Positions 31,570 to 45,460 of a DNA stretch of 64,000 nucleotides are shown here, in pieces. The notes below the pieces were generated by a model. The model worked only from the letters and a program-made list of their open reading frames with translations. It did no database searches and was not told the origin of the DNA. Both the position numbers and the translations under genes were made by a program. Location: positions 22,917 to 86,916 of the forward strand of contig DASUEN010000046.1 of assembly GCA_036275055.1 (NCBI GenBank). The letters are read 5' to 3'. The DNA is from Thermoanaerobaculia bacterium. GTDB taxonomy: Bacteria > Acidobacteriota > Thermoanaerobaculia > Multivoradales > UBA5704. Within the stretch, counting starts at the first letter, position 1. Each line of letters opens with the position of its first letter.

Positions 31570-32085
31570 GCTGCGTCCCGACTCTCCAGACACCGGTCCA
31601 GAGTCGCAGAAAGCGGGTCAGCGTCTCCTGACATCGGACCGGCACCGGCCGATCCAGAGCGATGTCTGGGGATCCGGGCCAGTGTCTCGAGACATCGCTC
31701 CTGTGTCTGGAGATCCAGACTGATGTCTGGGGATCCAAGCCGATGTCGGCTCCTCTGAAACGGTGCCTCCTGACAGCGGACCGGCGTCTGCCGATCCAGA
31801 GTGATGTCTGGGGATCCAGGCCAGTGTCTCCAGATATCGCTTCGATGTCTGGGGCTCCAGACTGATGTCCGGGGATCCAAGCCGACGCGGCTCACACTGG
31901 GCCGGCGTCTTCAGCATCGGACCGGCGTCTGCCGATCCAGAGCGTTGTCTGGCGATCCAAGCCGGTGTCGCCAGACATCGCTCCGGTGCCTGAAGATCCA
32001 AGCCGACGTCTCGGGATCCAAGCCGACGCCGGCTCACGCGGGACCAACGTCGGCAGATCCAAAGCGATGTCAGGCGATATACTCC
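31570..32085. repeat. Non-coding tandem array: about 3.5 higher-order units of 140-142 bp, each made of seven ~20-bp GATCC...GATGTCTGGG subunits
   Basis: Units are at 31621-31762, 31763-31902 and 31903-32042, with a partial fourth. GATCC occurs 12 times between 31651 and 32056. Every interval between them is 20, 41 or 60-61 bp. Confidence 0.85.
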
Positions 32086-32110
32086 GTTGTCCTGAGGTCG
32101 TGGGTCTCCT

Positions 32111-34762
32111 GTGCTCGAGCCATCCGAAACGGAGTCGGTATCCCCCCTCGCAGAGCCGGTTTCTTCGGGCAGATGGTTCTCTGGCGGCCTTCTGGACGGC
32201 CGGTACGAGATCAGGGAATGTCTTGGTCGCGGCGGCAGCGCCACCGTGTACCGCGTCTTCGACCGGCTCCTCGCGGCAGAGGTCGCCCTCAAGAGGGTCC
32301 ATCCCGAGCGCGATCCGGAACGGGCGCTCCTCCGTCTCCGGCGGGAGGTCAAGGTCGCGCGGGAGAGCCTGAGCCCTCATCTCGTCCGCGTCTACGAGCT
32401 TGGACAGTGCGGCGAGGACATTTACCTCACGATGGAGCTCCTTACGGGCGGGTCGCTCCGGGGCCGGCTGGGGAAGGGTTCTTTTCCCGTGGCGGAGGCT
32501 CTCCGGATTGCCGAGGCCGTGCTCCGCGGGCTCGCTGCGCTCCATGCGAAAGAGGTCGTACATCGCGACGTGACGCCTGGAAACGTTCTCTTTTCCGGGA
32601 GCGGCGAGCCGAAGCTCGCGGACTTCGGTCTGGCCTACCGGTTCGGGCGAGAGGAGACGCGGCTCACGCTCGCGGGAGGCGTGGTGGGAACCCTCGGATA
32701 TCTCGCGCCGGAGCAGCTTCTCGGAGAGGAAGCCAGCCCCCGGAGCGACCTTTATGCCTTGGGTGTCGTGCTGTTCGAGATGCTGGCAGGGAGACTGCCA
32801 CAGGAGGCATCCTCCGAATTCGGCCGGCGCCTCGGTCCGCTCCAGGCAGCTCCCGGCGTGCGGCAATACCGTCCCGAGGTCCCTCGCTGGCTGGCCGCGA
32901 TCGTGGCGCGGCTTTTGGAGGTGCGTCCCGTTGACCGCTATGCGAGCGCCGAAGCCGCCTTGCGGGATTTGCAACGGGAACGCCGCCCTCCCCACCTCCG
33001 GTTGCGGCGGCGACTCTTCCGTGCGGCGGTCATCAGCCTCCTCTTCCTGCCTCAGGCCGGCGTGCTCGTCACGCGCGCTCCCGAAGCAAAATTTTCCCAT
33101 CTCGTCCCGCTGGGCGAAAGCGGTATCGCCGCCGTCGGCACCGCGGGCGAAAGGCTTTGGACTCTCCCCGGAGTCGCTCCTGAAATCGCGGACCGCTGGA
33201 CCTTCGCGAGGCTCACGCCCGGCGGCCCTCGCCTCATCGCCACCGTGCTCTCCCGGCCGCAGGAGTGGTCGCTCGCGGCGGTCTCCACACTGTCTTTCCT
33301 CGACCCGGCTTCCGGGAAGGTCGTGAAGCATCGGCAGCTCCCGAACGCTGCAGACTACTTTCCGAACGACTCTCCGCGTTTTTCGTTCTCTTCAGTGAAA
33401 GCCGTCGATCTTTTCCATGACGGCGTCGACGAGATCCTCGTCAGCTACATTCACGTCCCGGAGGCGCCCGCCTACACCATCCTCTACGCGCCCCAATCCG
33501 ACCGGGCTCGCGTGATCTATTATTCGCGGGGAGGCCAGGGTTTCCAAGGCGTCGCGGATCTCGACGGCGACGGCTCCCCCGAGCTCCTTTTCGCGGGCGT
33601 CAACAACGGTTGGAACTGGGTAAACGTGGTGGCTGCGGTACGGCTCGACTTTCAATCGTTGTCCGAGGAAGGCTCGCTGCTCCCCGCGGCTGCGCCGGAC
33701 GTGATGGAGCAACCTGCGCAGGAGCGGTTCCTCCTCTGGTATGCGATCCTGCCGCGGGGGCACCTCGAAACCCCACACTTCCTCACCATCGATGAGAAGC
33801 GGCGAGAGCTCACCCTCCGCTATCGCTCCGGCAAAACCTGGACGCTCGGGTTCGACGGTTTTCCACCGGGAGCGGCAGGTCCGGAAAGGGCCGAGCGTCA
33901 ACGCGCCCGGCGAGCGGCCTATGAGCATCTCCGCGAGGCCGAACGCCTGCGCCAGTTGGGAGCGCTCGGCCTTGCCATGACCGAGGCCCTGGCCGCTCAG
34001 GGCTCAGCGGAGCTGGCGAAAGAAACCTGGCTCGGCCAATATGCCGAAAGGCTGCAGGCGAAAATCCTCGTTGCGTCGGGGAAAGTCTCGGAGGCGGAGG
34101 CGCGCTTCACGTCACTCTCGGCGAAGGCAGAGGATGCGCCCGAGGTCGCCTACGACGCCGCGGTGGCTTTCCATCTCCACGGCGATCTTCGAAAAGCGAT
34201 CATTTGGTACGAGCGCGGTATCGGCCGCGAGTCGGCGATGGGCGCGGGGAAGAGCAAGCACGAGTTCCTGAAGGGTGAGATCCTGGCTCTGGTGGAGGAG
34301 AGACGCTACACGGAAGCGCTCTCGGCGCTGGAGAGCTTCATGGCTGCGTATCCAACCTGGCGAAGCCACCTGTGGACGTACCGCGAGTACGTCCGCTGGC
34401 GAGCGGGTGAACGCCCGGATGCGGACCCTGCCGGGGTTCCGGCCAACTGGACGGACGTGGAGCGCTATTGGGATCTGGAGCTCGCGCTCGCGGACGGGGG
34501 CGAGCCCAAGGAGATCCTCCGGCGGGCCGACCGGCTCCTCGCCGAAAAGCTGGCGCCCCGGGCGGAGATTTTGTCGCTCCGGGCCGTGCTCCTGGCCCGG
34601 TTGGGGCAGCCGCGAGAAGCCGCGGCGGCGGCGCAGTCGGCCCTCGAGCTCGTGCGCGTGGAGCAGACGCGGAGTATCGTGGCGCGAGGGCATGCGGAGC
34701 TCGTGGAGAAGCGCGCCCGGGAGCTCCGCAGTGCTTCCGGTAACCCGGTAGAGAGGCCGTGA
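32111..34762 (+). CDS. Ser/Thr protein kinase with FG-GAP/VCBS-like and TPR-like C-terminal regions
   Basis: An 883-aa ORF (GTG start). Hanks kinase motifs are present (GRGGSATVY, VALKRV, HRDVTPGNVL, ADFGLA, GTLGYLAPE). Later come DLDGDGSPELLFAGVNNGWNW and helical-repeat sequence. Confidence 0.85.
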   Translation: MLEPSETESVSPLAEPVSSGRWFSGGLLDGRYEIRECLGRGGSATVYRVFDRLLAAEVALKRVHPERDPERALLRLRREVKVARESLSPHLVRVYELGQCGEDIYLTMELLTGGSLRGRLGKGSFPVAEALRIAEAVLRGLAALHAKEVVHRDVTPGNVLFSGSGEPKLADFGLAYRFGREETRLTLAGGVVGTLGYLAPEQLLGEEASPRSDLYALGVVLFEMLAGRLPQEASSEFGRRLGPLQAAPGVRQYRPEVPRWLAAIVARLLEVRPVDRYASAEAALRDLQRERRPPHLRLRRRLFRAAVISLLFLPQAGVLVTRAPEAKFSHLVPLGESGIAAVGTAGERLWTLPGVAPEIADRWTFARLTPGGPRLIATVLSRPQEWSLAAVSTLSFLDPASGKVVKHRQLPNAADYFPNDSPRFSFSSVKAVDLFHDGVDEILVSYIHVPEAPAYTILYAPQSDRARVIYYSRGGQGFQGVADLDGDGSPELLFAGVNNGWNWVNVVAAVRLDFQSLSEEGSLLPAAAPDVMEQPAQERFLLWYAILPRGHLETPHFLTIDEKRRELTLRYRSGKTWTLGFDGFPPGAAGPERAERQRARRAAYEHLREAERLRQLGALGLAMTEALAAQGSAELAKETWLGQYAERLQAKILVASGKVSEAEARFTSLSAKAEDAPEVAYDAAVAFHLHGDLRKAIIWYERGIGRESAMGAGKSKHEFLKGEILALVEERRYTEALSALESFMAAYPTWRSHLWTYREYVRWRAGERPDADPAGVPANWTDVERYWDLELALADGGEPKEILRRADRLLAEKLAPRAEILSLRAVLLARLGQPREAAAAAQSALELVRVEQTRSIVARGHAELVEKRARELRSASGNPVERP

Positions 34763-35691
34763 TGCTTCGTCTGTTATCCTTCTATGGCCAGGAAGAAAGG
34801 GTTTTCGAAGTTCCAGACAACGAAGCCCAGCTCGGGAGCAGTCCGGAGAACGATCTGGTTTTGCGCGTCCCCGGGATCTCGCGCCGGCATGCGCTCGTGC
34901 GGCGCTGCCCCGGCGGCGTCGAGCTCGTGGACCTTGGCTCCAAGAACGGCATTTTCGTGGAGGGCCGGCGAGTCAAGCGTGCGTTCCTCACGCCGGGCCT
35001 GCGGCTCCAGATCGGAGTGACCTGGCTGGAGCTCGAGGACGTCGATTCCTCCCAGGCGGAGCTTACGCGCCTGCTCCAGGATGCGTCCGAAAGAGCAGCA
35101 CCGCCCTCCGTGAGCACTGTGACCGAGTTGGCGGCCGGCGTCCAAAGCCTAACCCCGGCCGAGGCCGCCCTTGCCCTGGCCTACCACATCGCACAACGAG
35201 GAGTGGCGCTCCCGGGGAGGCGGACCGACCTGCTCGCTCGCATCAAGGCGACACTCGGCGCGGAGGCGTTCCTTTCTTTCGAGCGGCGGCGCAGCGGAGG
35301 GCTCCGGACTTTGGAGAGCGAAGGTACGTTCCTGAACGCTGACGTCCACGTCTTCGCCTCCCTGGCAGCCGATGCGAGCGTTTCGCCCTCGAAACAGGTA
35401 CTTCTCAAGCGCGCGGGACCCATCCTCGTCGCCGGCAGAGGTCCATGGTTTCTGGGAGCGAAGTTCGCCGGCGAGGCGCTTGCCCGAGAGGGATGGCGGA
35501 AGGATTTCCTGCGCTTTCTGGCCCATCGGTTCTTCCTCCCCCTGCGGACCCTCGACGACCTGAATGCCTCCGAAGCGCAGCGGATCCTCGCTCTCGTGGG
35601 CGGGAACAAGCGGAAGGCGGCGGGGCTGCTCGGAATCAGCCCCGGTACGCTCTACAAGCTTCTCGGCCACCGCGGTTCGGCCGGGCGCTGA
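34759..35691 (+). CDS. FHA-domain regulator with a C-terminal Fis-type HTH and no AAA+ domain
   Basis: The FHA domain reads LGSSPENDLVLRVPGISRRHALVRR...VDLGSKNGIFVEGRRV. The C-terminal HTH_8-like segment is ILALVGGNKRKAAGLLGISPGTLYKLL. The start overlaps the kinase stop (GTGATG). Confidence 0.8.
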   Translation: MMLRLLSFYGQEERVFEVPDNEAQLGSSPENDLVLRVPGISRRHALVRRCPGGVELVDLGSKNGIFVEGRRVKRAFLTPGLRLQIGVTWLELEDVDSSQAELTRLLQDASERAAPPSVSTVTELAAGVQSLTPAEAALALAYHIAQRGVALPGRRTDLLARIKATLGAEAFLSFERRRSGGLRTLESEGTFLNADVHVFASLAADASVSPSKQVLLKRAGPILVAGRGPWFLGAKFAGEALAREGWRKDFLRFLAHRFFLPLRTLDDLNASEAQRILALVGGNKRKAAGLLGISPGTLYKLLGHRGSAGR

Positions 35692-35800
35692 TCGGATCCG
35701 TTCACAATTTGAACAGCTTTGACAGGCCACAGCCGGGCTCCCACACTAGGCAATGTGCACGGCAATTCCTGGCCGGGCACGATCGTCAAGGGAGCCCGAC

Positions 35801-37117
35801 ATGAAAATCAAAGTGGCAACGATTCCCGTTCTGATCCTTCTCGCGATCCTGGGTGCGAGGGGTCCGGCCGAAGCCCAAATCGTCTTCCAGGACGATTTCG
35901 ATCGCGCTGACTCTTCTTCCCTGGGGCCACCGTGGCAACTGCTCACGGGCACGATGCTGCAGATTCAAAATGGCCAGGCTGAAGAGACCAGCGTCGGCCA
36001 GGTCGAAGATGCGGTGGCCGTCGCTGGCCTGAACCTGGCCCAACAAACCATTGACGTCGATTGGGCACCGACGGGAGGCAATAGCGGAGTGGATGGCCGG
36101 CTGCTGGGGCGTGTTCGCGATGCCAACAACTACTACGGGGCGAGGCTGGCTCAAGGCGGCGCCACCGAAGTCGTCCTTCTTTACAAGCTCGTGGGCGGCG
36201 TATATTCCGAGCTGACTCGGTCCGAGGTGCCAAAGGCTACGACGTCTCCGTACCATCTTCGGTTGACGATCACCGGTTCCTCTTTGGAGTTTCATGTCGA
36301 TCGCCCTGGCAGCGCAACGCTGGTCGTGACCGCGACGGATTCGAGCCTCGATTCAGGAAGCGCCGGTCTCGTGGGCTTCTCCGGCTGGGGCGGTACGCAA
36401 GCGCGCTCGACCTATGACAATTTCGTCGTCGCGGGCACAGGGGCGATGGGCATCGAAGGCTTCCTTTGGAAGGGCGCCTGGGACAGCGGCACCGCCTATG
36501 CGGCAGGGGACGCCGTGAGCTTCACCGGTTCGAGCTACGTAAGCCTGACGAACAGTAATATCGGCAATCAGCCAGGTTTTTCTCCGGAGAGTTGGGATCT
36601 CATCGCGCAGAAGGGCGACACCGGTGCAACCGGCCCAACGGGTGCTACAGGTCCGATAGGTCCAATGGGTCCAATCGGTCCGACAGGTGCAACAGGCCCG
36701 ACCGGTGCAACAGGTCCGGCGGGTGCAACCGGCCCCGCAGGCGCGAACGGCACCAGCGGCTCAGCGATCGGCGGCAACTACGCCAACACCGGCAACAACA
36801 CCTTCCTGATCCCATGGGGCACCAACACCAACGCGACCGAGGCCAACGCCGACGTTCCGCTGCCCTCGGGTAAAGCGAGCAAATTGGTCGTCAGTCTGAC
36901 GGTGGCACCGGGCGCCGGTCAGTCGGCGACCCTCACGATCCGAAAGAACGGAGTCAACACGGCGTTGACCTGCACGGTCTCCGGCACGGCCACGACCTGC
37001 GCCGACACGGTGGACAGCGTGACTTTCAGCAATGGGGACCTTCTATCCATCCTCTACACCGAAGCCGGCGCAGCGGCTTCCCGGATCCGCTTCGCTTTCG
37101 AGTACGACTCTCCGTAG
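35801..37117 (+). CDS. Secreted collagen-like protein: LamG/ConA-like domain, CBM5/12-like segment, 16 G-X-Y triplets and a C-terminal globular domain
   Basis: I trimmed track ORF 35753..37117 to the ATG at 35801 (signal [25 protein letters not shown]). It contains [27 protein letters not shown]...W, then [49 protein letters not shown]. Confidence 0.8.
36614..36760 (+). repeat. Collagen-type (G-X-Y)16 coding repeat
   Basis: A 9-bp periodic GGN-NNN-NNN run inside the CDS above. Confidence 0.85.
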
Positions 37118-37157
37118 ACGGCTCCCGTCCGGCTCAGCCCCGGCGCCGGCAAGCCCC

Positions 37158-38699
<1,542 letters not shown>

Positions 38700-38750
38700 G
38701 GGCTCACCATAGCGCAGCTTGGCGAAGACTGGCAGGGGAGCAGGAGGACG

Positions 38751-38790
38751 TCGGACATCCCCGCGGGATGGTCCGACATCTTTCCGACAG
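38751..38790 (+). promoter_or_regulatory. Candidate upstream activator sites: two SCGACATCY motifs 21 bp apart
   Basis: CGGACATCC lies at 38752-38760 and CCGACATCT at 38772-38780, with GACATC cores at 38754 and 38775. A third partial copy, CCGACAG, is at 38784-38790. They sit 60-85 bp upstream of the -24 element. Confidence 0.4.
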
Positions 38791-38835
38791 GGCGAAAGCC
38801 GGCGGCGGCGGAGGGCTCCAGGGGGGATTCGTGCC

Positions 38836-38850
38836 TGGCACCACGCTTGC
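38836..38850 (+). promoter_or_regulatory. Sigma54 (-24/-12) promoter
   Basis: TGGCAC-cacgc-TTGC lies at 38836-38850, an exact match to TGGCAC-N5-TTGC with GG and GC 12 nt apart. It is 54 nt upstream of the ATG at 38904 and divergent from the bEBP gene. Confidence 0.75.
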
Positions 38851-38903
38851 TCTGAGCGTTTGTCAAATATCACCCGTCAACGTCACTCAAGGAGGGATGA
38901 AAC

Positions 38904-39248
38904 ATGTCTCTGACCATTGAAGATCTCTATGGGAACTGGTTCGACGCCCGCATCGTTACGCGACTCCTCGATCCATGCGCCTCAGCCTTGGAGCTGTACG
39001 ACGGCGCGGACGGGAGCTCGTACTGGCACACCAGTGACGACCGCTGGGATGGAGCCGTTTCGTTCGATTCCGCCTCGGGGCAGATCCGGCTTCAGGGGTG
39101 CACCAAGTTCCCCGTGCTGACGGTGGCGACGGATACGACAGGCAGCGCGACCTTGAAAGCCGGCGACGTCGTCTTGTGCCGGATGGACGCTCAGGCCGGG
39201 GGCGATACCTGCAACCTCGGAATGATCAACAAGCCGCAGGACGGCTGA
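38904..39248 (+). CDS. Hypothetical 114-aa protein with no signal peptide; sigma54-promoter target
   Basis: A strong RBS (AAGGAGGG) precedes the ATG. I recognise no family. Confidence 0.6.
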   Translation: MSLTIEDLYGNWFDARIVTRLLDPCASALELYDGADGSSYWHTSDDRWDGAVSFDSASGQIRLQGCTKFPVLTVATDTTGSATLKAGDVVLCRMDAQAGGDTCNLGMINKPQDG

Positions 39249-39250
39249 AG

Positions 39251-41854
39251 CTACCGCGCCCCTGCGCCCGCGGCCTTCGCGAGCTGCGGGCGCACGGCGT
39301 CGAACCAGGGAAACGCGAACCAGCGGCGGTCGACGCCGCCGGCCAAGGCCTTTCTGGCATTCATGCGGGCGGAGGTCTCGTCGCCCACCAGGGCGTAGAC
39401 CAGAGATGCGGCATAGGCCACCTGGGGATCGCCGGCATCGTGGCGCTGGGCCTCTTGGATCGCCGCCACCGCCTCTTCGGAGCGGCCGAGGTGCGCCAGG
39501 GCCTGAGCGCGGGTGGTCAGCAAGGCATCGGGATCGGGATCGCGGGCGGCGTTTTCCAGCACTCGCGAGTAGAAAGCCGAAGCCCCTGGGCGATCGCCCC
39601 GCAGCAGCGCCGTATCGGCCAGGTTCAAGAGCGTCATCGGCGAGGAAGGAGCTTCTTTGAGGGCGCTGCGAAAGCTTTGGTCAGCCGCCTCGTAGCGATT
39701 GAGAAGCAGGTAGGCCATGCCGAGGTTGGTCAGCTCCGTTTCATCGGGAGCGCGCTTGACGAGCGTTTCGTAAAGCTCTGCGGCACGCTGCGGATTGCCG
39801 TTCAAGAGCTCCAGTTGGGCCAGGCGCGAAAGGGCATTGTACCGGTCCGGCGAACGCTCAAGGGCGATCTCCAGATAACGCCGGGCGCCGTTGACGTCGC
39901 CCGCTCGCAAGGCCATGTCGGACGCCTGTTGCAGCAGGAGCCAGGAGGGCTCGCGGCCGGCGGCGCGGCGGATCAGCGCCAGTCCCTCCTGGCTTTTACC
40001 CTGCTTTTCGAGCAGCGACGCCGCGAGCCCTTGGAAGCCCGGGTCGTCCGGCTGCACCCGCTGCGCACGAGCGAGAACGGCGGCGGCTTGCTGCAATCGT
40101 CCGCTGTTGAGCTCGACGAGGAAGGCGGCGCGCAGGGCACGCGGGTCATCGGGCGCCAGCTCCGTGGCGCGGGCGATGGCGGCGCGCGCGCGGCCGAGGG
40201 CAGCCTGGTCCCGATCGACCACGAACTGTTGCCGGGCGATGTTGGTTTCCAGGAGGTAGGCTTCGAGGAAGCGGGGCGAGGTGCGCTCGATCTGCGCCAA
40301 TTCGGTGAGGAACGCGGCGGGAGACGTTCCGCTGTCGCGGGTGCGGTAGCGGCGGCTCAGGTCGAGGAATTTTGCGTAGTCGGTCTCCGTCACCTGCAGG
40401 TCCGCAATCCCGGCGCGCAGCGCGAGATCAGGATAGGCGCCGCGCACCTGCTCCGCCACCGAGGCGCTCAAACGCAGGAGCTCGTGGACCGGCACGTCGA
40501 AGCGATGGACCCACGACAAGCTCCCGTCGGCGCGCAGGCGCCGTAGCTCGACCTGGCAGTCCTCGCCCGCACAGTCCAGGCGGGAGGTCACGACCTCATC
40601 GGTGGCGACGGCGCGCGCCAACTTCACCGGATCGTCGTCGGTTTCACCCGGCGGCGGCTCGCGCACCGCCAGGCCTTGAAAACCGAGGAGCGCCCGCAGG
40701 AGCCCGGTGTGCACGGCTCCCGCCGCGAGGTGCTGGTCCTCGGGAGCGGCGGTCGGAGGCACCGCAACGGACGTCGCCGGGGGAGGCGAGGCCAGCCAGC
40801 GCCAGGCGGTGAAGGCGAGCAGGGCTAGAGCGAGGAGCGCCGCCGCCGCGGCCAGCAGGCGGCGGCGCGGCCAGCCCAGGGCGCCCCGGCCGGAAACGGC
40901 AGCCGGCGCGCCGGGCGCCGTCGGATCGAGAGTGGGGACGGAGAGACCCGGCGGCGGCGTCAGCGCGGGCATCTCCGGGTGCGTCTCACCCGACCCCGCG
41001 AGCTCGGCGAGGAGGGCCATCACCTCCTCCGTCCGCTCCGGCCGCCTCGCTTTGTCTTTCTGCAACAGCCGGTCGACCAGATCGCTCAAAGGCGCGGGAG
41101 TCTCCGGGGCGAGGTGGATCACGGCCGGCGGCTTCTGAGTGCAGATGCGGGTCAGGGTCTCGATCGCGTTCTCCGATCGAAAGGGCAAGACTCCCGTGAG
41201 CATTTGATACAGCAAAATGCCGAGAGAAAAGAGATCGGAGCGGTGGTCGACCGGCTGGCCCAGGGCCTGCTCGGGGGACATGAAGTTGACCGTGCCCACG
41301 ATCTGGCCGGTGCCGGAGAGCGACGAGAGCACAGGGTCCGGCCCCGCGAAACGGCGGGCGAGGCCGAAATCGAGGATCTTGACCTCGCCGCCGGCCGTCA
41401 GCATGACGTTGTCGGCCTTGAGGTCGCGATGCACGATGCCGGCGCGATGGGCGGCGGCGAGACCGGCCGCGACGTCGCGGGCGATGCGCACCGCCTGGTC
41501 CGCCGGCAAGGGGCCGCCGGCGAGGAGCGCGGAGAGCGGCCGGCCCTCCACGAGCTCCATCACCAGCCAGTCGTCGCCCTCGGCTTCGACCCAGTCGTAG
41601 ACCTGCACCAGGTTGCCGTGGCTCAGGCGGGCGAGGGCGCGCGCCTCGCGCCGGAAGCGAGCGCGGCCGGCCTCGGGATCGCGAGCGTCCGGCTTGATGC
41701 GCTTCAGGGCCACTGGCCGGTCGAGCCGGTCGTCGTACCCCTGATAGACCTCCCCCATGCCGCCGCGGCCGAGCAGACGCTCGACGCGATAGGGCCCCAG
41801 CATGGCCGGCGGCGACGAACGGTCCGAACGATTCGCAGCGGGCTCCAACGACAT
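39251..41854 (-). CDS. Ser/Thr protein kinase with one TM segment and a long TPR domain
   Basis: An 867-aa ORF. Kinase motifs are GRGGMGEVY, VALKRI, HRDLKADNVML, DFGLA and GTVNFMSPE. A TM helix (LLAAAAALLALALLAFTAW) is followed by about 400 aa of TPR-like repeats. Confidence 0.85.
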   Translation of the reverse strand: MSLEPAANRSDRSSPPAMLGPYRVERLLGRGGMGEVYQGYDDRLDRPVALKRIKPDARDPEAGRARFRREARALARLSHGNLVQVYDWVEAEGDDWLVMELVEGRPLSALLAGGPLPADQAVRIARDVAAGLAAAHRAGIVHRDLKADNVMLTAGGEVKILDFGLARRFAGPDPVLSSLSGTGQIVGTVNFMSPEQALGQPVDHRSDLFSLGILLYQMLTGVLPFRSENAIETLTRICTQKPPAVIHLAPETPAPLSDLVDRLLQKDKARRPERTEEVMALLAELAGSGETHPEMPALTPPPGLSVPTLDPTAPGAPAAVSGRGALGWPRRRLLAAAAALLALALLAFTAWRWLASPPPATSVAVPPTAAPEDQHLAAGAVHTGLLRALLGFQGLAVREPPPGETDDDPVKLARAVATDEVVTSRLDCAGEDCQVELRRLRADGSLSWVHRFDVPVHELLRLSASVAEQVRGAYPDLALRAGIADLQVTETDYAKFLDLSRRYRTRDSGTSPAAFLTELAQIERTSPRFLEAYLLETNIARQQFVVDRDQAALGRARAAIARATELAPDDPRALRAAFLVELNSGRLQQAAAVLARAQRVQPDDPGFQGLAASLLEKQGKSQEGLALIRRAAGREPSWLLLQQASDMALRAGDVNGARRYLEIALERSPDRYNALSRLAQLELLNGNPQRAAELYETLVKRAPDETELTNLGMAYLLLNRYEAADQSFRSALKEAPSSPMTLLNLADTALLRGDRPGASAFYSRVLENAARDPDPDALLTTRAQALAHLGRSEEAVAAIQEAQRHDAGDPQVAYAASLVYALVGDETSARMNARKALAGGVDRRWFAFPWFDAVRPQLAKAAGAGAR

Positions 41855-41892
41855 CGGCTCCTGATCTCCTGAAGCGCCTCATCGTACCACCG

Positions 41893-41945
41893 CGCGGGAT
41901 GCCGCGGGACCTGTCGCGACATCCCGCAAAGATGTCCCGACATCC
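41893..41945 (+). promoter_or_regulatory. Candidate upstream activator sites: two SCGACATCC motifs 21 bp apart plus an inverted repeat
   Basis: GCGACATCC lies at 41916-41924 and CCGACATCC at 41937-41945, with GACATC cores at 41918 and 41939. The inverted pair GCGGGATG (41893-41900) and CATCCCGC (41920-41927) overlaps them. Confidence 0.4.
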
Positions 41946-41990
41946 TCGGCTCACCCCTTTCCTCCTCGCCTCTCGGGGGCCGCCGTGCCG

Positions 41991-42005
41991 TGGCACAGCC
42001 GTTGC
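41991..42005 (+). promoter_or_regulatory. Sigma54 (-24/-12) promoter
   Basis: TGGCAC-agccg-TTGC lies at 41991-42005, an exact consensus core. It is 44 nt upstream of the ATG at 42049. Confidence 0.75.
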
Positions 42006-42048
42006 TCTCTGCCGCCACCACAACCTGTTGTTTCATGGAGGGATGACG

Positions 42049-43851
42049 ATGAAAAAGAACTATCGTAGGTTCAGCTTGTCAAAGCTCTTCACCACCCTGG
42101 CCGTGACGCTTGCTTTGATCGGCCTGTGCCTGGTGGAGCCGCCGGTTTCGGCTCGTGCGGGGATGGTGCGCTCCACCCGTGCAGGGAACCAGTCCTTTCC
42201 TGCGATCGGCCCGGCTTTGGCGGTTCTGCCCCCGGACCTTCCGGCGGCGCCGGCTGCCACCACCCTGACCCAAGCCGCGACCTTCGCCTGGAAAGAATTC
42301 ATCGCCCTCAACTGGCCGGCCCAAACCGGGAAACGCGACACTGCGGATACCACCAAGATGTTCGGCGACCAGAGCGTTCCCCTCGTCTGGCAGACCTTCC
42401 GCGCCAAGGTGGAGATCTACCCGGGAAACGGCAATGAGAAGATAGGCCCCCACGGCTCGAACAAAGGGCCGAGCCAGGACTACGGTTACGACGATCCGCC
42501 GGAATACATTTATTCGAAAGACAGCGTGATCAACGGCTCGGACGTGCTCCCTTGCAGCGGGCAGGCTGCGCCCAACCAACCGGCATGGATCAATCTCGAC
42601 GAGGTGAGCCAGATCGGCTCGGACTCGATGTACGCAGGCTTCGGCCAGGATCCGGCCCCGACACCCACCAACAGCAAGCCCAACCTGTTCCGCTACATGG
42701 CGAAGGCCAACCGGACGGAGTACACGTACGTGGTGAGTAACCAGTACTGGTATACGCAAGGAACGGATCCCTCGGTTTCCAGTCCGCTCCAAACCGCGCA
42801 AAACAACTTCGTCAAGAACGTCGTCAACAAGAGACGGATTCCGCCCCTGGGCGCCTCGACAGTATTTTTTCCGGCCTCCTCGGCTCAAGATCCCGGGACG
42901 ATCGAAGTGAAGGCGGCCTGGCGCCCTTTGGGACCCTCCGAGCCCGCTGGGCGGTATCATGTGGCGAACGTGCGCTACTACGAGCGCGACCTGACTCAGA
43001 AGTTCTGTTACCGCGAGGACCAATGGGCTCTGCTGGCGCTCCACATCATACGCAAGACGCCCAAGGCACCGAGCTTCATCTATGCCACCTTCGAGCAGGC
43101 GGACAACATCCGGGACGGCAACGGTGCCCCAATCGAAAACCCGGATGGCAGCGTCATCCATCCGCCTCCTCCCAGCCCGCCCACCAACCCCGCATTGACT
43201 TACACGGATCATCCGAAGCACGCGACCCTCACGGCGGCGAGCACCACCTGTACGCCTGGAGGGCAGCTTTATTATCAGAACATCCACGAGAGCAACGCCA
43301 CGAAAACGCCCGTCAATCCGGGGCTGCCTTCAGGCACGATCTGTGTCAATTACCGGGACAATGCGATTCCCTCCGACGTCATCGCGGTCAACAAAGCCGC
43401 GCAAGTGGCGATCAACCGATACAACCACAGCGCGCCCTGGCAATACTACAAGCTGGTCAACGTGCAGTGGCAGCCCATTCCCTATCGGGAGATCAACTAT
43501 CTTGACCCCAACGCCCCCTACAACGCTGCAACCTACCACCAGGCGAACGTCGTGGTCGAGACCGACTACCCCTTGCAGATGTTCAACGGCCGATTCCCCG
43601 CGTACGGCGTGAACACCAATTACAAAACGAACGGCAAGCTGTATTTCCAGAACGTTTACACGCTCCACGGCACCAAGGTCAAGTCTTTCGACATGGGTGG
43701 CTGCATGGGGTGCCATGGCAGCGGCGCACAGCGGTTCGGCGCTGACTTCAGCTTCATCCTGGGCAGCCCCGTCACGGCGCCGGAAACCCCCGACGACTAC
43801 TCTCTGGCGGCGATCGCTCAGAAATACAAGGCCCTTTTCGAGCGGCACTAA
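42049..43851 (+). CDS. Secreted ~600-aa protein with a single C-terminal CxxCH haem-c motif (hypothetical); sigma54-promoter target
   Basis: I trimmed track ORF 41899..43851 to the ATG at 42049 (GGAGGG 6 nt upstream). The signal peptide is MKKNYRRFSLSKLFTTLAVTLALIGLCLVEPPVSARA. GGCMGCHGSGAQRFGADFSFIL lies near the C-terminus. Confidence 0.75.
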   Translation: MKKNYRRFSLSKLFTTLAVTLALIGLCLVEPPVSARAGMVRSTRAGNQSFPAIGPALAVLPPDLPAAPAATTLTQAATFAWKEFIALNWPAQTGKRDTADTTKMFGDQSVPLVWQTFRAKVEIYPGNGNEKIGPHGSNKGPSQDYGYDDPPEYIYSKDSVINGSDVLPCSGQAAPNQPAWINLDEVSQIGSDSMYAGFGQDPAPTPTNSKPNLFRYMAKANRTEYTYVVSNQYWYTQGTDPSVSSPLQTAQNNFVKNVVNKRRIPPLGASTVFFPASSAQDPGTIEVKAAWRPLGPSEPAGRYHVANVRYYERDLTQKFCYREDQWALLALHIIRKTPKAPSFIYATFEQADNIRDGNGAPIENPDGSVIHPPPPSPPTNPALTYTDHPKHATLTAASTTCTPGGQLYYQNIHESNATKTPVNPGLPSGTICVNYRDNAIPSDVIAVNKAAQVAINRYNHSAPWQYYKLVNVQWQPIPYREINYLDPNAPYNAATYHQANVVVETDYPLQMFNGRFPAYGVNTNYKTNGKLYFQNVYTLHGTKVKSFDMGGCMGCHGSGAQRFGADFSFILGSPVTAPETPDDYSLAAIAQKYKALFERH

Positions 43852-43888
43852 CCGGGCGCGGCTTCGCTCGCCCGAGGAGCCGAAGCTC

Positions 43889-45460
43889 TCACTGAGCGTT
43901 AGCCCGGTCTGCCCCGGCGAACCTCAACTTCGGGTCGTGCTGAGCCCGGTACAAGTAGCTCACCATTCGCCGCGTCAACTCCACGGTGGCGGCGACCTTC
44001 TCCGCGGCTTCGTAGAACAGCCGCAAAGCGGCTAGGGCTTCGCGCTCGATGCCTTCGGCTTTGAAGATCCATTTGAGCCGGGAGGCCGCCATCCAGACCT
44101 CCCGGCTGCGCCCCTCCTCCAGGTAAAGGGTGGCAAGCTCCAGCGTCGCCAGGGCGGCATCGAAAGGAATCTCTCGGGTGTTGAAGCTCTCGCAGACCTC
44201 TTCCAGAGCTTTGATGGCCTCAGCCCTTCTTCCCAGCCCAGCGGCCAGCCAACCCTCCAGCCAGCGGGTCCGAACCAAATCCAGTTCTTGGCCAAGTCGG
44301 TTTGCCAGTACCCGCACCGCCCGTAGGGGCTCCTCGGCTTCCGCAAAGCTTCCAAGATGCAGTAAGTTACCAAGGAGATTGAACCGCAGGCCGAACAACA
44401 ACCGAGGTTCTTGATTGCCATCAATCAGTGGCTCTGCTTGACGGAGGGCAGTGATCGCGCCGTGATAGTCGCCGAGCATCTCAAGCGCCCGCGCGCGGTT
44501 GACCAGAAGGTATTTCGCCTCATCGTGGCGGTCGACCTCCAGGGCCTCAGCGAGCAGGGCCAAGGCCTGGGCAGGCTGCCGCTGCTCCATGCGCAAAGTA
44601 GCCTCTAGACCTAGAACGCGTGCTTCATTGAACAGCCCCGGATCAGCAGGTGCTCCAGCCTTCCAAAGAGGTAATGCATTTCGGAAGGCTTCCTCGGCAT
44701 CCTGTAAATAGCCATGTACCCGCCTTGCGTTCCCAAGATGGACGCCGGCATAGCCCTGAGTTCGTTGAGAGAGGCTTCCGAGAACTCGGTTGGCGATCTC
44801 GACGGCCAATTCGGCAAGCTCCAGCGCTCGTTCCGCACTGTTGGAAGCCGCCGTAACGGATTCGGCACAGGCCAGTTCGCAGACAGCCCAGGACCAGTAC
44901 TCAGGTGCCTCTTCAAGTAGTAGCGCGCGTTCCGGCGCCGAGGTGTCCCGAAGTACGGCCCACAGCCCGGGAGCTTCCAAGCGATCCGCAGGTGACGGCG
45001 GGCGGTCCAACCGCCAAGGGCCGCCAACGCCATGCAAGACCTCTTCGACGACCGCCGCCACAGTCGGGCGAACGATCGCTGAAAGCAAAGCCATCAGCTC
45101 ACCCGGCAAGTCTTTCACCTCGGAGGAGACGTTACCCGTCATTCCCGGAGCCGTTCCACTCAGGACGGCCAGCACCTTACGGATCGCCGGCCGCAGGACC
45201 GCGTCAACGGTAGTGGATGGCACGCCAACCGCGGCGCAGATCTTCGCCCAATTCTCCGGACTGGGAGCCCTCTTCCCATTCTCGAAACGGCTGATCGAGC
45301 TTTCCGGAACGCCCGACCTGGCAGCCAACTCGGCCTGACTCCAGCGCCGAATGCCACGCAGGCACCAGATCAGCCAAGCCGTTTCGGCCAGGACTGGAGG
45401 TGACGTTCTCGGCTCCGGGGGCAAGATAGCTTGCCGTCTCGGGTGTGATTTTCCACTCAT
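43889..45460 (-). CDS. XRE-type HTH plus TPR regulator, paralog 1
   Basis: The HTH reads LRGIRRWSQAELAARSGVPESSISRFENGKRAPS. It is followed by about 380 aa of TPR-like repeats. By eye it is roughly two-thirds identical to 45953..47446 across the TPR region. Confidence 0.8.
   Translation of the reverse strand: MSGKSHPRRQAILPPEPRTSPPVLAETAWLIWCLRGIRRWSQAELAARSGVPESSISRFENGKRAPSPENWAKICAAVGVPSTTVDAVLRPAIRKVLAVLSGTAPGMTGNVSSEVKDLPGELMALLSAIVRPTVAAVVEEVLHGVGGPWRLDRPPSPADRLEAPGLWAVLRDTSAPERALLLEEAPEYWSWAVCELACAESVTAASNSAERALELAELAVEIANRVLGSLSQRTQGYAGVHLGNARRVHGYLQDAEEAFRNALPLWKAGAPADPGLFNEARVLGLEATLRMEQRQPAQALALLAEALEVDRHDEAKYLLVNRARALEMLGDYHGAITALRQAEPLIDGNQEPRLLFGLRFNLLGNLLHLGSFAEAEEPLRAVRVLANRLGQELDLVRTRWLEGWLAAGLGRRAEAIKALEEVCESFNTREIPFDAALATLELATLYLEEGRSREVWMAASRLKWIFKAEGIEREALAALRLFYEAAEKVAATVELTRRMVSYLYRAQHDPKLRFAGADRANAQ

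Follow-up and report, generated by a model that had tools for sequence, protein, structure and literature searches.

A receptor Hanks kinase, a sigma54 activator with a divergent FHA fold and two predicted sigma54 promoters form a conserved cassette in a Thermoanaerobaculia genome

We analyzed a 64,000-nucleotide stretch of DNA from a Thermoanaerobaculia bacterium (contig DASUEN010000046.1; hereafter the window, whose positions are used throughout), together with the 9.4-Mb assembly of the genome to which it belongs and related loci on metagenomic contigs (L022 to L046). By sequence comparison, the locus has at its core a conserved cassette in which a receptor Hanks kinase (STPK2) is combined with a bacterial enhancer-binding protein (bEBP) carrying an FHA-type domain and with two sigma54 promoters (P1 and P2), each preceded by an array of half-sites, or upstream activating sequence (UAS). 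Our best model, to which we give a probability of roughly 0.6, is that STPK2 senses a cue, that phospho-threonine switches the FHA-bEBP, and that the bEBP activates P1 and P2, while a second kinase module in the window, STPK1-P0002, is independent. What is new is a variant of the known design of FHA-type enhancer-binding protein and Hanks kinase in which the FHA domain is hidden from sequence searches. An earlier note on this DNA, made from its sequence alone, had listed two Hanks kinases, an FHA protein with a helix-turn-helix (HTH), a bEBP and two output genes, all of which we recovered at the same coordinates using an open reading frame map and Pfam/NCBIfam domain scans of the window proteins.

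As for the bEBP (513 aa; 37158-38699, minus strand), it displays a Thr-rich N-terminal tail (MTDTRKTTT), a divergent FHA fold (residues ~26-145), an AAA+ domain (Sigma54_activat, PF00158, E = 3.6e-59) and two tandem Fis-type HTH motifs, detected as HTH_8 in two stretches. The AAA+ motifs are intact, with GESGTGK at 184 (Walker A), GAYTGA at 231 and DEI at 255 (Walker B). Together with the C-terminal HTH and the presence of rpoN in the genome (a 491-aa open frame on contig C160), which the earlier note had wanted confirmed, this is what is expected of a sigma54 activator. The N-terminal domain was modeled by AlphaFold2 (AF2) from 25 homologues, with a predicted local distance difference test (pLDDT) score of 88.9. 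When this model was compared with the PDB using Foldseek, the top 50 matches were all FHA domains or FHA-containing proteins, with best TM-scores (target) of 0.7-0.82, including OdhI (4qcj, rank 1), ArnA, GarA (6i2r_B, rank 3), CT664, DgcB and EmbR (2ff4, 2fez). A profile of the bEBP family also matched the FHA domain of 3gqs, weakly (E = 0.0011), the LSRRP of the family being aligned on the canonical ISRQH and its GSxT on GSKNG. Among the 25 homologues, R60, S82 and R83 are invariant. Ser82 is aligned to the canonical phosphate-contacting Ser and Arg60 is placed where the Arg of the GR motif is expected, which suggests that the phosphate-contacting Ser is kept and, probably, the Arg as well. 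The predicted structure thus identifies the N-terminal domain of the bEBP as a divergent FHA domain by fold, not by sequence model. The earlier description of this protein as a full sigma54 activator with an FHA domain is consequently upheld for the AAA+ domain, the HTH and the FHA fold, but not for the Pfam FHA model, which is not matched.

This domain organization is shared by a sizable family. More than 130 bEBPs have the same N-terminal region, mostly in metagenome-assembled genomes (MAGs) of Acidobacteriota/Thermoanaerobaculia and in Sorangium, and none of them has a Pfam FHA annotation. FHA-bEBPs are therefore likely, we suggest, to be under-counted in Acidobacteriota-like genomes. The Fis-type HTH are conserved in tandem across 111 homologues. 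Two HTH motifs per chain are unusual for NtrC-type activators, and the pair may be related to the three-half-site architecture of the UAS. As for the tail, an L-x-T-[DE]-T-R motif lies 17-20 residues before the first FHA strand, and the distance of T[DE]TR is constant within the closest subfamily; 52 of 103 N-terminal tails contain a looser [DE]T[RT].

The second partner in the cassette is STPK2 (39251-41854, minus strand), a receptor Hanks kinase of 867 aa with a Pkinase domain (E = 8.7e-53) and a strong TPR region matched by many TPR families. Its catalytic motifs (GRGGMGEV, VALK, HRDLKADN, DFG and SPE) are intact. Both kinases of the window have a single transmembrane helix, located after the kinase domain (~333-351 in STPK2, ~302-320 in STPK1), which predicts that the TPR region is extracytoplasmic in both. 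Several lines of evidence link this type of kinase to the bEBP. The window genome, which has ~34 bEBPs and 68 kinase loci in its 9.4 Mb, encodes five paralogues of the bEBP, four of which have a Hanks kinase within ~2.5 kb. These adjacent kinases account for three of the four closest paralogues of STPK2, indicating that kinase-bEBP pairs were co-duplicated. Taking all the loci of the bEBP family together, a kinase or a kinase-type TPR gene lies next to the bEBP in 12 of 15. A kinase with TPR adjoins the bEBP in L034, L035 and L036, overlapping the bEBP stop codon in L036, and a kinase also adjoins it in L043 and L045. In L022 the N-terminus of the kinase lies beside the promoter, while only fragments of kinase-type TPR genes are available in L031/L032 and L033.

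The two promoters were reported by the earlier note as exact TGGCAC-N5-TTGC matches, and they were readily reproduced. P1 (TGGCACCACGCTTGC(TC), 38836-38850, predicted start near 38861) and P2 (TGGCACAGCCGTTGC(TC), 41991-42005, predicted start near 42016) are the only exact matches in the window, both on the plus strand, when shuffles of the window expect 0.11 and two or more matches occur in none of 100 shuffles. Both are intergenic and correctly oriented, and each is followed, 44-54 bp further on, by a start codon that has a strong Shine-Dalgarno sequence. In the whole assembly there are 26 exact matches, against ~20 expected by chance from base composition. The bare pattern is therefore not enriched and not diagnostic genome-wide, and the weight of P1 and P2 comes from their placement and conservation. 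P1 is kept in orthologous loci, as TGGCACCGCGCTTGCTC in L032 and as TGGCACCGCTCTTGC in L033, and P2 is kept as TGGCACAAGCGTTGCTC in L022/L023.

Upstream of each promoter, the earlier note had pointed to a pair of SCGACATCY motifs with cores exactly 21 bp apart. The GACATC cores are indeed found at 38754/38775 and at 41918/41939, each pair 21 bp apart, but the consensus fits only three of the four sites, the one at 38752 reading CGGACATCC. Moreover, a 21-bp direct repeat is not the key feature of these sites, since the corresponding cores are 20 bp apart in L022 and 22 bp apart in L032. When both strands are read, each promoter is preceded by GACATC-N7-GATGKY-CC-GACATC, and the sites are better read, on the sequence, as an inverted repeat GACATC-N7-GATGKY followed by an extra GACATC. 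In UAS1 (38754-38780, plus strand; GACATC-N7-GATGGT-CC-GACATC), which begins 82 bp 5' of the -24 element of P1 and 55 bp 5' of the divergent bEBP start, the inverted repeat is imperfect. In UAS2 (41898-41944, plus strand), the repeat is perfect and, together with the extra half-site, reads GACATC-N7-GATGTC-CC-GACATC (41918-41944), after a degenerate half-site GATGCC at 41898; it begins 73 bp 5' of the -24 element of P2 and lies 64-90 bp 5' of the divergent STPK2 start.

This composite UAS has two matches in the 9.4-Mb assembly, solely at P1 and P2, and none in 299 other genomes of the order, where the reversed-pattern control also gives zero. In contrast, the plain pair GACATC-N15-GACATC occurs 23 times in the genome, the other 21 occurrences being within dispersed tandem arrays or repeats. 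Used as a marker for the locus, the composite retrieved no orthologous locus from the 299 genomes. Since none was found in 60 related genomes either, conservation was drawn from metagenomic contigs instead. Footprinting against a second organism, with a P0004 homologue 66% identical and an orf114 homologue 48% identical, shows that the half-sites and the -24/-12 elements are kept while the spacers have diverged. In the orthologous L022 locus, the UAS2 block is ~90% identical in alignment while the spacer toward the promoter has diverged. The corresponding region of L032, ahead of the orf114 homologue P0246, has four alternating GATGTC/GACATC half-sites.

More distant members of the bEBP family point to the same type of element. 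In L043 and L046 (Thermoanaerobaculia MAG), GACACG-N7-CGTGTC is found 90-105 bp 5' of exact sigma54 promoters. The relaxed pattern GACAYS-N7-SRTGTC has four matches in the window genome, two of which lie beside bEBPs of this family. One of these is UAS2 itself; the other, on C259, is 40 bp 5' of a promoter with one mismatch. Since the spacing between direct cores changes in L022 and L032 and the inverted repeat is kept in the family, the family-wide element is, as judged from these alignments, the inverted repeat GACAYS-N7-SRTGTC with a 7-bp spacer.

The UAS may also serve the divergent genes. A block (AAGCTGCGYTATGGTG; 38700-38745, minus strand, in the window) is conserved in the window, L032 and L033 and ends a few nucleotides before the ATG of the bEBP. 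It contains a candidate -10 element (TATGGT; 38706-38711, minus strand), predicted from this conservation, which is 6 nt 5' of the ATG and beside UAS1. This suggests that the bEBP mRNA is leaderless or has a very short leader. As the predicted -10 element adjoins UAS1, autoregulation of the bEBP is possible.

As for the output of P2, P0004 (600 aa; 42049-43851, plus strand) is, as the earlier note had it, a secreted protein with a lone C-terminal CxxCH (CMGCH). Its N-terminus resembles a signal peptide. No match was found in Pfam, NCBIfam, a PDB profile search or a fold search (best E = 0.5), and its AF2 model has a pLDDT of 81 and a predicted TM-score (pTM) of 0.87. P0004 has 716 homologues across phyla, all of which are annotated as hypothetical save one UniRef entry named cytochrome c domain-containing, and M-G-G-C-x-G-C-H is invariant across 37 homologues. 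No cytochrome family is matched. The window genome encodes cytochrome c maturation genes (Cytochrom_C_asm). With its CxxCH motif, putative export signal and these maturation genes, P0004 is predicted from sequence to be an exported protein with a heme-c site. No orthologue of P0004 was found in 60 related genomes. A 66% identical protein, P0006, is on L022/L023, where its gene is divergent from the N-terminus of a kinase, with the promoter TGGCACAAGCGTTGCTC and the same half-sites in between.

Elsewhere, P0004 homologues usually precede a protein of 116-157 aa with the signature ASAPH..FW...GQMP...WI..GCP (L024, L028 and L030). On one Thermoanaerobaculia contig, a P0004-family gene comes after LodA-like and LodB-like genes. 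The family may be part of an uncharacterized extracytoplasmic heme enzyme system. At four distant loci of the P0004 family that we examined, a Hanks kinase was present in one (L028, ~1.5 kb upstream) and a bEBP in none.

The output of P1, orf114 (P0003; 38904-39248, plus strand), encodes a 114-aa protein with no obvious signal peptide and with a GC content of 0.80 at third codon positions. In agreement with the earlier note, it could not be assigned to a family, having no Pfam or NCBIfam match. The motifs that define its own family are an N-terminal M-x-LTI-x-DL-x-G-x-W and a C-terminal C-[DN]-x-x-x-[IV]-N-[KR]-P. Among 1.8e9 representatives, the only true homologue is P0246 (48% identical), which comes from the same samples as P0006. 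Its gene is flanked on one side by a fragment matching the 5' end of the bEBP gene and on the other by the TPR-encoding end of what is presumably a kinase gene. In a third organism (L033), the bEBP shares 65% identity over its N-terminal domain, and a divergent 82-aa gene beside it has an exact promoter and half-sites of the GACATC type; a convergent TPR gene comes next, as in the window. The 82-aa protein shares only the C-terminal motif with the orf114 family, its C-terminus being ...DDTCDLELVNKPRD, compared with ...GDTCNLGMINKPQDG in orf114 and ...DNPCDLQMINKPPDG in P0246. Homologues of orf114 are found beside this bEBP family in L031/L032 and in L035, the latter containing two more family members, next to which lie a bEBP of 51% identity and a TPR-bearing kinase. 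One of these, a 94-aa gene (L035 7220-7504, minus strand), seems frameshifted, with the C-terminal GDCDPTIVNRPRIPP in another frame past the stop codon. Since the contig has a coverage of 3.2x, the frameshift is likely an assembly error.

Two other candidate relationships of orf114 were rejected. Its alignment with the 116-157-aa small partner that follows P0004 homologues is forced, with 18-30% identity and no shared motif. A similarity to domains of giant repeat proteins (P0245 and P0247), which are cadherin/Ig-repeat proteins, comes down to the common strand motif ...TVTATD..G.. and is uninformative.

The two output genes differ from their regulators in composition, with a GC content of 0.61 for P0004 and 0.63 for orf114 versus 0.71 for STPK2 and 0.72 for the bEBP. 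The presumed targets of the bEBP are different in other genomes, i.e., a GMC oxidoreductase in L046 and another small protein in L043. With a GC content below that of the regulators and no orthologues in 60 relatives, orf114 and P0004 resemble acquired cargo that has come under a regulatory cassette of resident type. The cassette, in turn, seems to have picked up different cargo from one genome to another.

Upstream of the cassette, STPK1 (32111-34762, plus strand) is a receptor Hanks kinase of 883 aa, with a Pkinase domain (E = 1.4e-44) and a weak TPR match. The usual Lys in its catalytic loop is replaced by Thr (HRDVTPGN) and its Gly loop reads GRGGSATV, from which its activity may be altered or reduced. 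P0002 (34759-35691, plus strand) has an FHA domain (1.7e-15) and HTH_8 (6e-6), with no AAA+ domain, and its start overlaps the stop of STPK1, so that the two genes are translationally coupled as the earlier note had observed. The same geometry, with a kinase domain ~2.5 kb upstream, is found for the two paralogues of P0002 in the genome (C66 and C97). No P0002-like gene is present in the other instances of the bEBP module that we examined. Since STPK1-P0002 paralogues occur elsewhere and are missing from other bEBP modules, we read STPK1-P0002 as an independent, merely adjacent module, and these gene contexts indicate that it is probably separate. The single self-contained circuit of the earlier note is hence not sustained, for STPK1 and P0002 form a conserved operon of their own, of which the genome has two more paralogous copies.

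How might the cassette work? In our best model, the TPR ectodomain of STPK2 would sense an extracytoplasmic cue and render the kinase active, and STPK2 would then make phospho-threonine on the N-terminal Thr tail of the bEBP (L-x-T-[DE]-T-R) or on itself. The FHA domain would bind this phospho-threonine via Arg60/Ser82, and binding would toggle the AAA+ domain between an inactive and an oligomerization-competent state, by analogy with GarA/OdhI, DgcB and EmbR-PknH. Judging from the position, uniqueness and conservation of the sites, the tandem HTH would bind GACATC-N7-GATGKY and the neighboring half-site, and the bound bEBP would remodel sigma54-RNA polymerase at P1 and P2, giving as outputs orf114 and the exported predicted heme-c protein P0004. 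Since the UAS are 55-90 bp 5' of the divergent bEBP and STPK2 starts, bEBP binding would probably autoregulate these two genes as well. The earlier note had likewise proposed that a kinase controls an FHA-bEBP. The FHA fold, the kinase adjacency in 12 of 15 loci and the footprinted sites all strengthen that proposal, but its single circuit and its 21-bp repeat are not supported.

Several observations weigh against this model. The Pfam FHA model (PF00498) is not detected in the bEBP, whether at E <= 0.01 with the whole protein or at E <= 10 with residues 1-160. In the bEBP family, Pro stands in place of the canonical His and the pocket Asn is not kept, so that phospho-threonine binding by this domain cannot be taken for granted. 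Only 15 of 108 family members have the tail motif in its strict form, and three of the 15 family loci (C68, L044 and L046) have no kinase in the sequence examined. Half-site number and spacing vary among orthologous promoters, making the exact binding unit uncertain. P0002, with its Fis-type HTH, could bind nearby DNA. Finally, orthologues of the module are absent from 60 related genomes, and the evidence for conservation consists of a handful of short metagenomic contigs.

Some of these points would be explained if the FHA fold were a degenerate scaffold that does not read phospho-threonine, with another ligand or partner gating the AAA+ domain and the kinase having other substrates, or acting on the bEBP by a route independent of the FHA mechanism. 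The silence of the Pfam model even at its most permissive threshold, the replacement of His by Pro and the absence of the Asn-Gly turn are all in keeping with such a scaffold, as are the 22 residues inserted between Arg and Ser. However, both canonical phosphate-contacting residues are invariant (the Ser aligned directly, the Arg inferred from its position), and the kinase and bEBP are co-duplicated, and translationally coupled in L036, which fits a cognate kinase-reader pair. We therefore consider a degenerate scaffold unlikely. The HTH of P0002 bears on a different possibility, that of one integrated circuit in which both kinases and both FHA proteins feed P1 and P2, P0002 for example competing with or assisting the bEBP at the GACATC sites. 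The genes are adjacent within 12 kb, P0002 and the bEBP both have a Fis-type HTH, and a tandem array rich in GATGTC/GACATC lies directly 5' of STPK1. However, the copies of STPK1-P0002 elsewhere have the same operon geometry with no bEBP of this family nearby, other bEBP modules lack a P0002-like gene, and the array belongs to a repeat family dispersed on four other contigs, in which the flanks are AGACATCG versus SGACATCC in the UAS. An integrated circuit is doubtful, to about the same degree as the scaffold.

Much less probable than either is that P1, P2 and their motifs are chance or nonfunctional sequences, orf114 and P0004 being transcribed by sigma70. The genome-wide number of exact promoter matches is close to the base-composition expectation, and a consensus scan of 35600-44100 detected no convincing sigma70 promoters or intrinsic terminators, although no sigma70 model suited to the taxon was used, which leaves some room for such transcription. 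However, two well-placed intergenic matches in 64 kb far exceed the 0.11 expected, the -24/-12 elements and half-sites are kept in two other organisms in which the flanking spacers have diverged, and the composite UAS is exclusive to these two sites. This makes chance a very improbable explanation, and the best model, with STPK2 and the bEBP acting on P1 and P2, is the one that we retain.

A more specific version of this model is suggested by analogy. The bEBP family might be a GarA/OdhI-like intramolecular phospho-switch placed on a sigma54 motor, in which a dedicated kinase would phosphorylate the T-[DE]-T-R tail. Capture of the tail by the hidden FHA domain, in cis or in trans, would then gate hexamer assembly. 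Here, the switch would control the heme protein and possibly a feedback partner. We regard this version as tentative, and rather less likely than not to be right in full. If true, it would represent a one-kinase, one-activator cassette parallel to the two-component NtrC systems, regulating an unrecognized extracytoplasmic heme protein with a novel fold, together with a small partner that perhaps feeds back. In GarA/OdhI, a Hanks kinase phosphorylates a Thr motif, to which the protein's own FHA domain binds. These proteins are among the top structural matches of the bEBP domain, and the short Thr motif that precedes their FHA domain at the N-terminus is comparable, by analogy, with the bEBP tail. 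They differ in being stand-alone inhibitors of metabolic enzymes instead of transcription factors, and only the closest subfamily has the bEBP motif in its strict form.

Other known systems share parts of this design. In Myxococcus xanthus, Jelsbak, Givskov and Kaiser reportedly found enhancer-binding proteins in 2005 through a recognizable FHA domain. Like the bEBP, the Myxococcus proteins combine an FHA domain, a sigma54 AAA+ domain and a Fis-type HTH, and the idea that Hanks kinases feed sigma54 through a phospho-threonine reader is common to both. In contrast to them, the bEBP has an FHA domain that escapes Pfam (His replaced by Pro, Asn lost, longer loop) and a tandem HTH; its family has a dedicated adjacent TPR receptor kinase and identifiable UAS/promoter pairs, and is found mainly in Acidobacteriota-type MAGs and Sorangium. 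That FHA-domain enhancer-binding proteins of M. xanthus were already known is apparent from PMC12288465, which cites the 2005 work (PNAS 102:3010) as its reference 91. EmbR-PknH of Mycobacterium tuberculosis is similar in that an FHA transcription factor is under a cognate receptor Hanks kinase, and the fold comparison also retrieved the FHA domain of EmbR. However, EmbR belongs to the SARP-type sigma70 activators; its FHA domain is C-terminal, it has no AAA+ domain and it does not use sigma54. The arrangement of the DNA is reminiscent of PspF-pspA and NtrC-glnA, where the regulator is divergent from a sigma54 promoter and an inverted-repeat UAS in the shared region overlaps the promoter of the regulator; the distance between UAS and -24 element, 50-105 bp, is also as in these systems. 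PspF and NtrC differ in their input, which is a PspA partner switch or a two-component receiver instead of a kinase and FHA domain, and in their half-site, which is other than GACATC.

Hanks kinases and sigma54 activators are abundant in the large genomes of soil bacteria, yet the wiring of cognate kinase, regulator and promoter can rarely be assigned from sequence. Here, a sensor kinase, a phospho-threonine-reader domain that evades searches, the half-sites, two promoters and two outputs can all be named as candidates. The locus is thus a compact test case for how phospho-threonine signaling gates an AAA+ transcription motor. It also provides a regulatory handle on two uncharacterized families, one of which comprises >700 exported predicted heme proteins without a structural relative.

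Between P0002 and the bEBP, the window encodes a secreted collagen/CBM5_12-like protein (35753-37117, plus strand). The array directly 5' of STPK1 (31570-32110) consists of three 142-bp tandem units of ~20-bp subunits (GATGTCTGGGGATCC...). We rejected it as a part of the UAS and of this module, since only the GACATC hexamer is in common, the flanks differ, and the other copies, on C86, C198, C276 and C314, are away from kinases and P0002 paralogues. Of the five arrays, three share a contig with a gene for a 639-647-aa bEBP. A second repeated element, with GATGTCCCGGGACATC palindromes, is found at C252:25107, C256:5884, C267:2756 and C291:9587, away from the bEBP paralogues. It is near-identical on C267 and C291, and may be the end of a mobile element or a site for another regulator. 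Lastly, orf114 and STPK2 are convergent, with stop codons 2 bp apart (39246-39253), and they overlap by 10 bp in the orthologous L031 (1014-1023). Since no terminator was found by the above scan, a sigma54-driven transcript of orf114 would extend, as antisense RNA, into the kinase gene from its 3' end.

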